Origin: Sulfuricurvum sp. PD_MW2
Lineage (GTDB): Bacteria > Campylobacterota > Campylobacteria > Campylobacterales > Sulfurimonadaceae
Length of the DNA: 64,000 nucleotides
Assembly (NCBI RefSeq): GCF_002633015.1
Contig: NZ_NSIU01000011.1
Coordinates: 5,184-69,183 of the forward strand
Direction: 5' to 3'
Of this stretch, positions 23,998-28,251 are shown piece by piece. The notes under the pieces were generated by a model. It made no database searches. It had not been told where the DNA came from and was given only the letters and a program-made list of their open reading frames with translations. Numbering within the stretch: position 1 is the first letter of the stretch; each line of letters starts with the position of its first letter. A program made the translations under genes and the position numbers.

Positions 23998-24456
23998 ATG
24001 ACAACTGAACAACCATTGGATGAACTTCTGCGCGAATGTGCAAACTCGGTAGGAGGAAAAAACTTTTTCCTCACCCTCGCCGAAACGATCCGATCTACCC
24101 GCGAGGGGATTCTCGTCGGTGAGAAAAAACAGATTAACTACTCCAGCGGAACAATGACATGGAACAAAACGCTTCATGCCGACAACTGGAGATTATTGAT
24201 CGAATCAGCCAAAGTGCGCACTAAAGACGGCAATATTTTGCTCCCGGTAGAAGACAAACGACACAAAAACATCCTCAACATGATCCGAACCCTTAAACCG
24301 CTAACCTTTACCGTAAAACCAAACAACAGCGAGGATGGAGAGGGATTTAGTTTTGCCGCGCTTGAAGTGATCGATGAGAAAACAACACGGGTTTCTCCGC
24401 TGTTCAAAGCGATGTTTACGATGCCGATCGAGGTATTAAAAAAGAATATGGGATAA
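23998..24456 (+). CDS. Hypothetical protein
   Basis: 152 aa ORF after an AAGGA SD; no family recognised. Confidence 0.7.
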   Translation: MTTEQPLDELLRECANSVGGKNFFLTLAETIRSTREGILVGEKKQINYSSGTMTWNKTLHADNWRLLIESAKVRTKDGNILLPVEDKRHKNILNMIRTLKPLTFTVKPNNSEDGEGFSFAALEVIDEKTTRVSPLFKAMFTMPIEVLKKNMG

Positions 24457-24486: not shown

Positions 24487-24563
<77 letters not shown>

Positions 24564-24608: not shown

Positions 24609-25067
24609 TTAGTGTAGTGGAACATACGCATACCCCTCGTTTTGCCACTTGACCAATCCGACCATTGCCGATTTAATCGGTGTGACAAAAGGGTATAAAT
24701 CTTGACTCAATATCCCCCTTTTATGCATCCCCGACATACACACTTCCAAATGAATTCGATATTTTTTTACCATCTCTTCGAGACGTTGTTGAATCACTTC
24801 TTGATGTTTGACGAGTGATTCATCGAGTCCGTACGATGTATTATTCAAATTTTGAACAAAAAACTTGTATGCATCGCCATGTATCACAACAGCTACATCA
24901 ACCATGTCTCCTTGGGAACTGAAATAATCAATCGTTCCGGGAAGACCGTTCAAAAATGCTTTATCGAAAGATTCAAAATCACCGGTTTTTAAATCTATCA
25001 TCATTTTTTTCGTCTCTGCAAAAGAGAAACTCACCATACATAAAAACAAAACAATTAAAATACGCAT
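24609..25067 (-). CDS. Exported DsrE/DsrF-like family protein
   Basis: Signal peptide, VAVVIHGDA, LEVCMSGM, QNEGYAYV. Confidence 0.75.
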   Translation of the reverse strand: MRILIVLFLCMVSFSFAETKKMMIDLKTGDFESFDKAFLNGLPGTIDYFSSQGDMVDVAVVIHGDAYKFFVQNLNNTSYGLDESLVKHQEVIQQRLEEMVKKYRIHLEVCMSGMHKRGILSQDLYPFVTPIKSAMVGLVKWQNEGYAYVPLH

Positions 25068-25195
25068 CTACAATTTATCCTTATCTGAATATCTACCTAT
25101 CTATTTTATCGTGACGCATTATTGTAAAAATAGTGTAAATTATTCGTCACTTACCAAGCTTTATCTGTATAATTCGGAAATTATTTGAAACTATT

Positions 25196-25792
25196 TTGAT
25201 ACACATCGGATACCCTTTTATGAGAACTCAACGCTTACCCTTCGGCAAACAAAATCCTGATAAGAAAAATGCCGTTTTTTTAGCCATCTATGTGGATGCA
25301 ATTTCCCCATGGCGCTACTTTAAAGATGATATGCAGCACATCAAATGCCCTGCTTTAATAATGATTGATAGATGGGATGGACGCATGGGATTTCCGGGAG
25401 GAACAGTCAATGACGGGGAAAATCTCACAGAAGCACTGATACGGGAGATCAAAGAAGAAATAGGTATCACGATCAAACCTGAAAAAGTCCATCCGATCGT
25501 AACACACGAGACTCGTATTGTTACTCACCTCTATGGATTAAAGGTCTTAGAAGTCGAATTTTTGCACATCTATTACCATATACTCAACAACTTCTCCCGC
25601 TCAATCCTTTTGCACGCGTATGAAGAAGGGGACGATTCTCATTTTATGTCGGAGATTACAGGGATCAAAATCGTCCCACTGTTACAGCACGACAACAAAG
25701 GGATCAACCGTTTTCTCGAAAACTCTTTTGCCGGTTCATCACGAGATGATTTAGACGTATTGCTCAAAGAAGTTTTTAACCTCAAAGTTTAA
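25196..25792 (+). CDS. NUDIX hydrolase, NUDT16-like
   Basis: Full Nudix box GTVNDGENLTEALIREIKEEIG preceded by RWDGRMGFPG; C-terminal FLENSFAGSSR; start uncertain (TTG 25196 or ATG 25219). Confidence 0.88.
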   Translation: MIHIGYPFMRTQRLPFGKQNPDKKNAVFLAIYVDAISPWRYFKDDMQHIKCPALIMIDRWDGRMGFPGGTVNDGENLTEALIREIKEEIGITIKPEKVHPIVTHETRIVTHLYGLKVLEVEFLHIYYHILNNFSRSILLHAYEEGDDSHFMSEITGIKIVPLLQHDNKGINRFLENSFAGSSRDDLDVLLKEVFNLKV

Positions 25793-26502
25793 TGGATTCG
25801 TTTACCGACAATATCACCAAAAAACAATACATCTTCTAAAATGGCTCTCTCAGATAGGCCATCTCTGCCGAGATTAATCAACAGTTCTCCTTGAGCACTG
25901 GAGAAAATACGGTCATTCAAAACAACTTTCAAAAATTCCCCATCATCCGTCTCAAGCTTTTGTTTCATCTCGGAAAGAGCCTCGCTTTGGGGAAATGAGA
26001 CATTGATCCGACCATCTTTGCGGTTTCCGCCAATAACATAAAAATCCCGATCATGCCGCTCTTTGAGATAGTGTTTAAAATTAAAAAAGAGTGTTAGAAT
26101 GTCTTCGGAAGCGTAAAAATCATTTTTGACTTTATCCCATTCATCGCTTTGAATATTTTCACACCATACCGTTTTATTGGGATGGTCAAACGTATAAATT
26201 TTGGTCGTTTTTTTCGAATCGGTACGACGGATTTTGATGTATTTTTGAGGAAGCAATATCCCATTAACGATCCGTCCATGACTCTCATACGTTTCAACGC
26301 GATTATTCGTCAATACTTTTGCGATACCTGTCGTTCTCGCTTCGATACGGATCGAATAGGTATCGTCATCACGGGTTTCAAAACGGGCATCTGCCACCCC
26401 GAGGGCTTGAAAAATTCCATACGATACTTCATACGTTGCAGTCACTACTTTGGCATACGAGATCTGAATCAGTACTATCACCAAAAAAACGATCTTTTTC
26501 AT
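25789..26502 (-). CDS. DUF3108-like exported protein
   Basis: Signal peptide, YEVSYG..G.A, YESHG..P.KY, DILTLFF. Confidence 0.65.
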   Translation of the reverse strand: MKKIVFLVIVLIQISYAKVVTATYEVSYGIFQALGVADARFETRDDDTYSIRIEARTTGIAKVLTNNRVETYESHGRIVNGILLPQKYIKIRRTDSKKTTKIYTFDHPNKTVWCENIQSDEWDKVKNDFYASEDILTLFFNFKHYLKERHDRDFYVIGGNRKDGRINVSFPQSEALSEMKQKLETDDGEFLKVVLNDRIFSSAQGELLINLGRDGLSERAILEDVLFFGDIVGKRIH

Positions 26503-27070: not shown

Positions 27071-27829
27071 ATGACTCAAATTCTTGTTTTTGCCGTTGTG
27101 GCACTCCTTTTTTACTGGCTCTCCCGAAGCTTTTCTCAAAATCAGCATACCTATACCCGCAACCAGTTTGCCGGATTCAAACTCACCAAAGAGAACCTCG
27201 CGTACAGTGAGTTGGGCCTCTTTGTCGCTTTGAGTGCAAAAATCGCCAAAGCCGACGGTCGGGTTGATGAACTCGAAGCCGAGCTTATCGGAAATATGTT
27301 CAATGACATCAGTGCCCTCTTCCCAGATCCCGAAGCGACCAAAAAACTTCTCAAAGAGATTTTTGATGAAGAAAAAAATGCGCCTCACAATATCGATCCC
27401 GTAGCACAGGCTTTGTATCAAGCGCTCCAAAACGATGCGCATAAGCGTCAAAAGATGATGGAGTTTTTAGTCCATCTCACCTACATCGACGGAACTCTCA
27501 GCCATGCGGAAGAAGAGATGCTGCGTGTTATAGCCAATCATATGCAATTTCATGCAGATGAACTTGCCGCAATGTTGGAGCGCTTTGGATCGTACCATCG
27601 CAACAGTGTCAAAGAGAGTTCGATTGATCAGGCCTATTCCATGTTGAATCTCACCTCCAGTGCGACCAATGATGAGATCAAAAAAGCATACCGTGCACTG
27701 GTACGGGAATACCATCCCGATATCATTAAGTCACAAGGTGCATCCGATGAGTATCTTAAAGAGGCAACTGAAAAAGTCCAAGAGATCAATGCAGCCTATG
27801 AAATGATCAAAAAAACACGCGGGATGTAA
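27071..27829 (+). CDS. djlA: DjlA co-chaperone (TM, TerB-like, J domain)
   Basis: AKIAKADGRVDELE; J domain IKKAYRALVREYHPD...INAAYEMI. Confidence 0.88.
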   Translation: MTQILVFAVVALLFYWLSRSFSQNQHTYTRNQFAGFKLTKENLAYSELGLFVALSAKIAKADGRVDELEAELIGNMFNDISALFPDPEATKKLLKEIFDEEKNAPHNIDPVAQALYQALQNDAHKRQKMMEFLVHLTYIDGTLSHAEEEMLRVIANHMQFHADELAAMLERFGSYHRNSVKESSIDQAYSMLNLTSSATNDEIKKAYRALVREYHPDIIKSQGASDEYLKEATEKVQEINAAYEMIKKTRGM

Positions 27830-27840
27830 AAGGAGAGACT

Positions 27841-28251
27841 ATGGATAAAAAACGTCTGTTAAATGGTGCGTTTTGGATTATCTTTATTGGATTATTGGGG
27901 GTATTTGCCTATACGAAAGGGTGGATTTTAACCAATTTTGAATCCATATCCTCGACACAAGCGTATAATTTACTACAATCAAATGAAAACGTAGCCATAC
28001 TGGACGTCCGTACTCCGCAGGAGTATTCAGAAGGGCATATTGAAGGTGCAATTTTAGCCCCCGTACAAACATTACAAAATGATCTTGCTCAAATTGCCAA
28101 AGTGAAAAATCAAAAAATTATTGTTTATTGCCATAGCGGCAATCGCAGCGTTGCCGCCTCTCGAATACTGGTGCAAAACGGTTTTACACCGTTCAATCTC
28201 AAAGGGGGTATTACCGACTGGAAAGCGAACGGGTTTGCTACGGTTCAATAA
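27841..28251 (+). CDS. Membrane-anchored rhodanese-domain protein
   Basis: LDVRTPQEY..GHIEGA, YCHSGNRS, LKGGITDW. Confidence 0.9.
   Translation: MDKKRLLNGAFWIIFIGLLGVFAYTKGWILTNFESISSTQAYNLLQSNENVAILDVRTPQEYSEGHIEGAILAPVQTLQNDLAQIAKVKNQKIIVYCHSGNRSVAASRILVQNGFTPFNLKGGITDWKANGFATVQ

Follow-up and report, generated by a model that had tools for sequence, protein, structure and literature searches.

The gene, its locus, and its family

The window analyzed here is a 64,000-nucleotide stretch of the genome of Sulfuricurvum sp. PD_MW2 (contig NZ_NSIU01000011.1, positions 5,184 to 69,183, forward strand), and its open reading frame (ORF) at 25196 to 25792 on the plus strand encodes a member of the NUDT16 family of Nudix hydrolases. 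The position is that given by a first-pass annotation, which had likened the product to metazoan NUDT16. Counted from a TTG codon, the ORF comprises 198 amino acids. Since the orthologs are 190 to 196 amino acids long and align from residue 1, the ATG at 25220 is the likely start. The coding sequence of this NUDT16-like Nudix hydrolase, assigned from Pfam family PF22327 and an AlphaFold2 model, would thus extend from 25220 to 25792 (plus strand), with 190 amino acids and a TAA stop. The 8-codon N-terminal extension from the upstream TTG (25196 to 25219, plus strand) is probably untranslated, and no ortholog reaches into it.

A consensus scan placed a candidate sigma-70-like promoter (TCGTCA-18-TATAAT; 25144 to 25173, plus strand) 47 nt 5' of the ATG at 25220, a match of pattern only, with 10 of 12 positions agreeing. 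Between 24900 and 26000, no site resembling an intrinsic terminator was detected. Upstream lies a DsrE-like gene (24609 to 25067, minus strand), and downstream a convergent DUF3108 gene (25789 to 26502, minus strand) runs 4 bp into the stop region of the Nudix gene (25789 to 25792). With one flanking gene divergent and the other convergent, the Nudix gene is monocistronic and has no operon partner. The locus, which holds the DsrE-like and DUF3108 genes, also encodes a methyl-accepting chemotaxis protein, a CxxCxxCC protein, a TerB-DnaJ protein, a rhodanese, and a GGDEF protein. The G+C content of the gene is 41.2%, against 40.8% for the window, and is host-like. A tRNA-Gly gene lies about 650 bp upstream of the Nudix gene. 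This tRNA-Gly(TCC) gene (24487 to 24563, minus strand) adjoins a 152-amino-acid ORF (23998 to 24456, plus strand) upstream of the DsrE-like gene, and that ORF has no Pfam or PHROG match and yet is 85 to 93% conserved in several Sulfuricurvum genomes. On the other side, a 252-amino-acid protein (27071 to 27829, plus strand) joins an N-terminal membrane segment to a TerB domain and a C-terminal DnaJ J-domain, and its gene is followed by the rhodanese gene (27841 to 28251). A prophage or island origin of the window copy was considered and rejected, as the neighbors have no informative PHROG matches and the G+C content equals that of the window; integrase genes and repeats were not looked for. Membership in a defense system was likewise rejected: the PADLOC model PDC-S07 matched at 38 bits over residues 55 to 98 only, which is the level of a Nudix box, and the neighbors are housekeeping genes.

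The family assignment was made at the levels of profile, sequence, and fold. The Pfam model PF22327 ("Nudt16-like") matched residues 45 to 180 with 68.5 bits (E 8.5e-19; cut-off 27), whereas the generic NUDIX model PF00293 reached 42 bits. When all PDB sequences were searched with phmmer, the top match was human NUDT16 (E 4.8e-10; residues 45 to 183 against human residues 44 to 176), followed by Xenopus X29 (E 4.7e-8); the first unrelated Nudix protein matched in the box only (E 1e-4), and TIRR was far weaker (E 0.011). Identity to human NUDT16 is about 31%. The four motifs quoted in the first-pass annotation, RWDGRMGFPGG, RIVTHLY, EITGIKIVPL, and GINRFLENSFAGSSR, are all in the translation, and the human strings set beside them recur when the protein is aligned with NUDT16 chains by HMMER.

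An AlphaFold2 model built from 58 diverse homologs had a mean predicted local distance difference test (pLDDT) value of 95.3 and a predicted template-modeling (pTM) score of 0.90. When this model was compared with the PDB by Foldseek, ranks 1 to 39 were occupied only by NUDT16, X29, and TIRR/Syndesmos (E 2e-12 to 2e-9; template-modeling [TM] score, 0.64 to 0.80), and the next fold was a CoA pyrophosphatase (E 5e-7; TM 0.42 to 0.46). The structure comparison that had been proposed as a check therefore puts NUDT16, X29, and TIRR ahead of every other Nudix protein. The model has the NUDT16-type fold, which is a Nudix core with N-terminal strand and C-terminal helix additions. The similarity to NUDT16 is far above chance and, as had been claimed, extends well past the Nudix box, in the Pfam and PDB sequence matches as in the fold.

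Two other readings bear on this assignment and together are highly improbable. The protein could be an ordinary bacterial Nudix hydrolase of the MutT, RppH, or NudI type that resembles NUDT16 in the box only, and there are indeed weak, box-only NCBIfam matches to MutT, YtkD, NudI, and RppH. However, no NCBIfam Nudix equivalog reaches its cut-off, and these matches remain below even one third of it (MutT TIGR00586, 31.9 against 97.9; NudI NF012016, 28.8 against 95; YtkD TIGR02705, 29.7 against 154; RppH NF001936 and related models, 26.3 against 118, with RppH models overall at 17 to 26 bits against 116 to 259). The NudC model NF001299 gives 15.8 against a cut-off of 158. NUDT16 comes first by a wide gap in the family-specific profile, the PDB sequence search, and the fold search; the first-pass annotation had named generic bacterial Nudix families as the best hits to be expected if it was wrong, and the top profile is instead specific to NUDT16. 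Alternatively, the gene could be eukaryotic contamination or have been acquired from an animal very recently, but more than 160 orthologs lie on long Campylobacterota contigs and chromosomes, the G+C content is host-like, and identity to the human protein is just about 31%. The profile, PDB sequence, fold, ortholog, and G+C evidence led us to reject both readings.

Active-site positions were mapped in an alignment of human NUDT16 with 134 family representatives, in which human residues 44 to 176 were taken from the HMMER alignment to PDB chains. The human N-terminus placed ahead of them agrees with the numbering of PMC4485890 and with the names of mutants in the PDB. Conservation was counted in 163 sequences of the Campylobacterota clade, in all of which F20, R51, W52, D53, G54, G57, F58, P59, G60, G61, E67, R75, E76, E79, E80, and E145 are invariant. 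The family signature RWDGRMGFPGG (25370 to 25402, plus strand) accordingly keeps its R, W, D, G, G, F, P, G, and G throughout. It includes Arg51 and Asp53, which correspond to Arg50 and Asp52 of the human enzyme (phosphate binding), and Phe58 of the GFP loop (G57-F58-P59), which corresponds to human Phe57, whose main-chain NH meets the purine O6 (PMC4485890). Outside the box, Glu145 (25652 to 25654, plus strand) aligns with the metal ligand Glu136 (PMC4485890, PMC6459841). The Nudix box itself, read from the sequence as G61-X5-E67-X7-R75-E76-X2-E79-E80-X-G82-I83 (25400 to 25468, plus strand), is intact in the sense that the canonical box is complete, but it is not NUDT16's own variant: NUDT16 and X29 have the box GX5DX8REX2EEXG, one residue longer (PMC5389931), whereas the form here is GX5EX7REX2EEXGU.

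The residues that contact the base differ from those of animals in two places. Human His24 stacks on the purine base (PMC4485890, PMC6459841, PMC8535469), and its position is held by Phe20 (25277 to 25279, plus strand), a phenylalanine in 122 of the 134 family representatives. The C-terminal helix motif FLENSFAGSSRDDL (25712 to 25753, plus strand) contains FLENSFAGS, matching FLENSFxGS, and holds Ser173 and Asp177. Ser173 corresponds to human Ser166, part of the base/ribose water network, and is S or A in the clade. Asp177 takes the place of human Gln170, the residue that hydrogen-bonds N1 of the base, and is always acidic in the clade (D in 124 sequences, E in 39); among the 134 family representatives, 104 are acidic here (99 with E and 5 with D) and 21 have Q. 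Thus, the base-contact residues of the animal enzymes, His24 and Gln170, described as "highly conserved" in NUDT16 homologs, are replaced by Phe20 and Asp177. On the alignment, both clade-wide swaps are chemically conservative and would keep the aromatic ring (His24 to Phe) and the hydrogen-bond acceptor (Gln170 to Asp/Glu). Because the canonical Nudix box is intact, the enzyme looks fully catalytic, unlike TIRR, and it keeps the NUDT16 pocket with two systematic substitutions.

Distribution and ancestry

The 2.26-Mb genome (76 contigs) carries one copy of the gene. Close relatives with 70 to 96% identity are found in Sulfuricurvum, Sulfurimonas, Sulfurospirillum, Arcobacter, and unclassified Campylobacterales. 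The family model passed its cut-off in 38 of the 121 genomes examined from the host's taxonomic family and in 8 of 301 genomes sampled from the phylum, all eight in one order and within 5 of 57 genera; at the same stringency, none of 14 control genomes did so. Pairwise ratios of nonsynonymous to synonymous substitution rates against orthologs are about 0.05, with synonymous sites saturated. The gene is under strong purifying selection and has long resided in its host.

Gene context was compared across 80 loci, the best 80 of 122 in a profile scan of contigs, all from Campylobacterota. Synteny is retained in just part of Sulfuricurvum. At the other loci, the neighbors lie mostly on the opposite strand and are unrelated housekeeping genes, encoding an ABC transporter, GltX, an aldo-keto reductase, a SurA-like protein, DUF808, and PolA. 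Coupling to uvrA did not occur at the loci compared. A Campylobacterota operon partner was therefore rejected, the neighbors having no functional link. When the locus was compared with a congener that lacks the gene (G048), the region proved to be rearranged and offered no clean boundary of an empty site. The gene is a resident, selected, monocistronic accessory gene.

The wider family is much larger than these relatives. A scan of 1.84 billion cluster representatives returned 541 clusters at E<=1e-3 and 92 at E<=1e-10, most of them 160 to 240 amino acids long with the signature R-W-D-G-x-x-G-F-P-G-G. A taxonomic origin was established for a minority of the distant representatives: Actinostola and Strigamia among animals, the amoebozoan Pelomyxa schiedti, and, among bacteria, Paenibacillus pabuli and Vibrio megaplasmids. 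Other clusters lie on long contigs with phage-like arrays of thymidine kinase, SIR2, dCMP deaminase, nucleotidyltransferases, and many short co-directional ORFs. The phage family PHROG 9999 (phrog_9999) matches the query at full length (85.6 bits, residues 3 to 183), and tblastn found full-length homologs in 74 phage records, mostly of jumbo phages (121Q-like, RaK2/K64-1, GAP32, CBB, and XbC2) but also of Aeromonas phages of about 100 kb. All phage proteins tested pass PF22327. Phage proteins are also the top structural matches in BFVD, and UniProt names one of them "U8 snoRNA-decapping enzyme." In IMG/VR, the exact signature occurs on five contigs, four of them 234 to 395 kb long. Some representatives have unusual architectures. 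P0156 (470 amino acids) joins a Nudt16-like domain to ankyrin repeats, and in two very long proteins, P0139 (1657 amino acids) and P0144 (2715 amino acids), the Nudix-box region is matched separately 13 and 19 times, respectively; P0139 resembles a translated repeat and may be an artifact.

Other branches of the family sit in gene contexts of their own. In jumbo phages of Escherichia coli (E9.1/121Q-like), Klebsiella (RaK2), and Pectobacterium or Xanthomonas (CBB/XbC2), the gene order is nicotinamide phosphoribosyltransferase (Nampt) or nicotinate phosphoribosyltransferase (NAPRT), Sir2, a NUDT16-like gene, two small ORFs, and PhoH, with no gap between Sir2 and the NUDT16-like gene, which abut or overlap. 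The Sir2-NUDT16-like cassettes lie at L094 4252-5552, L098 3261-4552, L095 4186-5894, and L099 3188-4894. The Nudix proteins of CBB and XbC2 carry a C-terminal receiver domain (PF20274). On Vibrio parahaemolyticus and Vibrio vulnificus megaplasmids of about 0.9 Mb (L096 5959-7353), the NUDT16-like gene is convergent with a NADAR gene, which is followed by a Phd/YefM antitoxin gene, near parAB. The locus of P0177 (L114 1-5501) encodes a 753-amino-acid RNA-ligase-like protein and a Zeta-toxin/AAA kinase-HD protein and looks like an RNA-repair neighborhood.

A tree of 68 sequences was computed with IQ-TREE (LG+G4) and is given here with ultrafast bootstrap (UFBoot)/SH-like approximate likelihood ratio test (SH-aLRT) support; the bootstrap stopped short of full convergence. 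Human NUDT16, Actinostola, Strigamia, P0200, and Pelomyxa form the eukaryote clade (100/97), and its successive sisters are P0153 (99/83) and P0177 (95/90), which lie in compact, prokaryote-looking gene contexts with PspC, an S-layer homology (SLH)-domain protein, and RNA ligase. This nesting rests on midpoint rooting, without an outgroup, and on the sister relations starred in the tree, and the deep branches are weak. The Campylobacterota clade (100/100) groups with P0132, P0142, P0130, and P0128 (94/93). The query thus falls outside the animal NUDT16 clade and groups with sequences from jumbo-phage contigs: its nearest relatives outside Campylobacterota are on viral contigs of 236 to 395 kb, and P0128 shows no difference, in the aligned columns, from a protein encoded on an IMG/VR contig of 236 kb. 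Because the Campylobacterota clade is separate and well supported, the Sulfuricurvum gene is a member of the NUDT16 family but not an ortholog of animal NUDT16.

On the simplest reading of this tree, animal NUDT16 would be a minor branch within a family found mainly in prokaryotes and phages, and the Campylobacterales gene would share recent ancestry with jumbo-phage genes. The inter-domain or phage-linked history that the first-pass annotation had suggested is upheld to this extent, in that the family is abundant in jumbo phages and in several bacterial lineages, with animals as one small branch, but there was no recent transfer from an animal to a bacterium. Since the Pelomyxa schiedti protein P0234 (KAH3766765.1) clusters with animal NUDT16 (100/97), the eukaryotic branch may extend beyond animals; alternatively, Pelomyxa may represent a further transfer or contamination.

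Candidate functions

The reading that we favor, tentatively, is that the protein may be a stand-alone house-cleaning Nudix pyrophosphohydrolase that complements RdgB, with 6-oxopurine nucleoside di- and triphosphates as substrates, of the type of inosine diphosphate or its deoxy form (IDP/dIDP), inosine triphosphate (ITP), xanthosine diphosphate (XDP), and perhaps guanosine diphosphate (GDP). The purine nucleoside would be buried, as in NUDT16, in a pocket of Phe20, Phe58, and Asp177, where Phe20 would stack, the main-chain NH of Phe58 would donate to the C6 carbonyl, and Asp177 would accept N1-H. Cleavage of the diphosphate would then release the nucleoside monophosphate. Because such a pocket is predicted to favor 6-oxopurines, the likeliest job would be the clearing of deaminated and noncanonical purine nucleotides. 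RdgB/Ham1 would take the triphosphates and the NUDT16-like enzyme would complement it, a role plausibly useful to nitrate-reducing sulfur oxidizers under nitrosative deamination.

Several findings are consistent with the house-cleaning role. Nudix enzymes with a GFP motif have been predicted to share NUDT16's need for a C6 carbonyl (PMC4485890). Human NUDT16 binds IDP with a dissociation constant (Kd) of 42 nM, compared with about 1.8 mM for ADP-ribose, which makes 6-oxopurine diphosphates the tight ligands of the family (PMC8535469). The representative P0159, from a bacterial metagenome-assembled genome (L100 6001-7176, also L101), is a 391-amino-acid fusion of Ham1/ITPase and a Nudt16-like domain, and its gene directly follows adenylosuccinate synthetase and lies near SAICAR synthase, an inosine monophosphate-centered context. 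The Nudix set of the host genome (G000) consists of four proteins, namely, RppH (252 bits), a 145-amino-acid NadM-Nudix-like protein, an ADP-sugar pyrophosphatase of the YffH/AdpP family, and the NUDT16-like protein, at C23:69700-70113, C3:17925-18287, C45:44712-45086, and C54 (in the window). Neither a MutT nor a NudC equivalog was detected in this genome, and because MutT is lacking, the NUDT16-like protein is the sole Nudix protein left for pool sanitation. RdgB/Ham1 is present in the host and in 115 of the 121 genomes of the taxonomic family, and a replacement of RdgB was therefore rejected.

Other points weigh against the house-cleaning role. No conserved neighbor that points to a substrate of the Sulfuricurvum gene was found in the 80 Campylobacterota loci. 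The gene is dispensable, as its counts in the taxonomic family and the phylum sample show, whereas RdgB is near-universal; a gene so patchy is an accessory rather than a core sanitizer. The Ham1 fusion P0159 is a single representative and belongs to a different subclade. As to the pocket, the acidic residue at 177 could shift the preference to guanine through bidentate N1/N2 binding or, if protonated, could tolerate adenine. Finally, elsewhere in the family the neighbors are genes of NAD/ADP-ribose metabolism or of RNA repair, and these contexts bring in two further functions.

The first is RNA 5'-end decapping. A second bacterial enzyme of this kind would take noncanonical caps (NAD, FAD, dephospho-CoA, NpnN, or GppG-like) off RNA and leave 5'-monophosphate RNA for decay. 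Human NUDT16 removes 7-methylguanosine (m7G), NAD, FAD, and dephospho-CoA caps (PMC7337524, PMC2566886), and its affinity for GppG equals that for IDP, but its affinities for free nucleotides exceed those for caps (PMC8535469). The host's four Nudix genes include no NudC equivalog, yet they do include a canonical RppH. P0177 adjoins an RNA ligase and a kinase/HD protein, P0128 lies near a PolyA_pol-family nucleotidyltransferase, and the receiver domain joined to the CBB and XbC2 proteins is of a cyclic-phosphate-processing kind, whereas the 80 Campylobacterota loci hold no conserved neighbor of RNA metabolism. Taken together, these data make decapping an unlikely function of the window gene. 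A broader proposal built on it is more doubtful still. It would derive animal NUDT16, and hence TIRR, from a Nudix family of jumbo phages and scattered bacteria, whose form with the Phe/acidic pocket would be a guanine/hypoxanthine-specific nucleoside diphosphate-X (NDP-X) hydrolase acting on nucleotide-capped RNA 5' ends (GppG/NpnN/NAD type). With RppH and NudC, it would bring the decapping enzymes of bacteria to three, and phages would have co-opted it with Sir2/Nampt modules.

The second is the hydrolysis of ADP-ribose, O-acyl-ADP-ribose, or ADP-ribosyl conjugates of protein, DNA, or RNA, in NAD turnover or in the reversal of ADP-ribosylation. Here the contexts of distant relatives are suggestive: a homolog directly follows Sir2, together with nicotinamide/nicotinate phosphoribosyltransferase, in three jumbo-phage groups (E9.1/121Q-like, RaK2, and CBB/XbC2), P0133 has SIR2 3 kb upstream, and the Vibrio megaplasmid homolog is adjacent to a NADAR gene. 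Those relatives, however, have identities of only 24 to 31%, and no Sir2, NADAR, or macro neighbor is present in the Campylobacterota loci compared. In the RaK2/121Q/CBB phage clade, moreover, the Phe of GFP is replaced by Gly or Ala, so that this clade may differ in specificity. Human NUDT16 buries the adenine and exposes the distal ribose, which allows conjugates to be processed (PMC6459841), but its binding of free ADP-ribose is very weak, given the millimolar Kd above (PMC8535469) and a Michaelis constant (Km) of 837 uM (PMC6459841). The host genome, furthermore, already has an ADP-sugar pyrophosphatase of the YffH/AdpP family and a NadM-Nudix-like protein. The first-pass annotation had offered reversal of ADP-ribosylation by phages or toxins; with the sole PADLOC match at the level of the Nudix box and the PHROG matches of the neighbors uninformative, nothing ties the gene to phage defense or toxin reversal. 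We consider a role in ADP-ribose metabolism doubtful.

The three functions first proposed for the protein, namely, cap removal, nucleotide sanitation, and reversal of ADP-ribosylation, are indistinguishable by computation, and each is echoed in the context of some other branch. In Sulfuricurvum, the gene is probably an accessory nucleotide house-cleaning gene.

Comparison with known systems

NUDT16 has been studied as an animal enzyme of RNA decapping, IDP sanitation, and ADP-ribosylation removal and serves as a tool for mapping the ADP-ribosylome. The activities of human NUDT16 and X29 are decapping of the U8 small nucleolar RNA (snoRNA), hydrolysis of (d)IDP/ITP as a diphosphatase, and hydrolysis of ADP-ribose conjugates. 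The name-giving U8 snoRNA substrate cannot apply here, because the host has no m7G caps, snoRNAs, or poly(ADP-ribose) polymerases. That NUDT16 is mainly described in animals, as the first-pass annotation had it, agrees with the literature: orthologs were found just from human to Cnidaria (Taylor and Peculis, PMC2566886), the snoRNA-decapping clade was counted among those confined to one domain of life (Srouji et al., PMC5389931), and a 2025 survey described PF22327 as "from animals ... likely ... limited to this kingdom" (PMC12210691). No published study of a member of the bacterial or phage branch was found in the literature. Since UniRef and JGI automatically name the Campylobacterota proteins "U8 snoRNA-decapping enzyme," the homology is already on record in databases. 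The window gene is a new, uncharacterized member of a known family, and the family-wide point is one of moderate interest: most of the family resides in bacteria and phages.

That point concerns hundreds of clusters at 50% identity from bacteria and jumbo phages; the animal clade is nested beside lineages in prokaryote-like contexts. It makes the automatic name misleading on bacterial and phage proteins, and it offers a tractable bacterial or phage system for the ancestral substrate of the NUDT16 fold. The conserved Sir2-NUDT16-like pair in the NAD modules of jumbo phages deserves attention. For Sulfuricurvum, a house-cleaning role would be useful and not surprising.

The closest known proteins are human NUDT16 and X29. 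The Sulfuricurvum protein resembles them in passing the PF22327 gathering score, in fold (TM 0.72 to 0.80), and in length (190 versus 195 amino acids), and it shares the RxDG-x2-GFPGG loop, the equivalent of Glu136, the FLENSFxGS helix, the equivalent of Ser166, and an aromatic stacker. It differs in its low overall identity, its canonical box, the replacement of His24 by Phe and of Gln170 by Asp, and its separate clade. TIRR/Syndesmos (NUDT16L1) has the same fold (Foldseek E ~1e-10, TM ~0.7) but lacks the catalytic Nudix glutamates, all of which the Sulfuricurvum protein keeps, and acts as a binder of 53BP1 and RNA. The jumbo-phage Nudix proteins of PHROG 9999 (RaK2 nudE_1 and those of 121Q-like phages, GAP32, CBB, and XbC2, with the Aeromonas LAh phages) share a full-length match but have 24 to 34% identity; their genes stand in Sir2/Nampt cassettes, some fused to cREC_REC, whereas the Sulfuricurvum gene is chromosomal, monocistronic, and outside a prophage. 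RdgB/Ham1/ITPA belongs to the same proposed pathway, the sanitation of inosine and xanthosine nucleotides, but is unrelated in fold and family. RppH and NudC belong to the same Nudix superfamily and are the parallel for an RNA-decapping role, and the genome has a genuine RppH at another locus.

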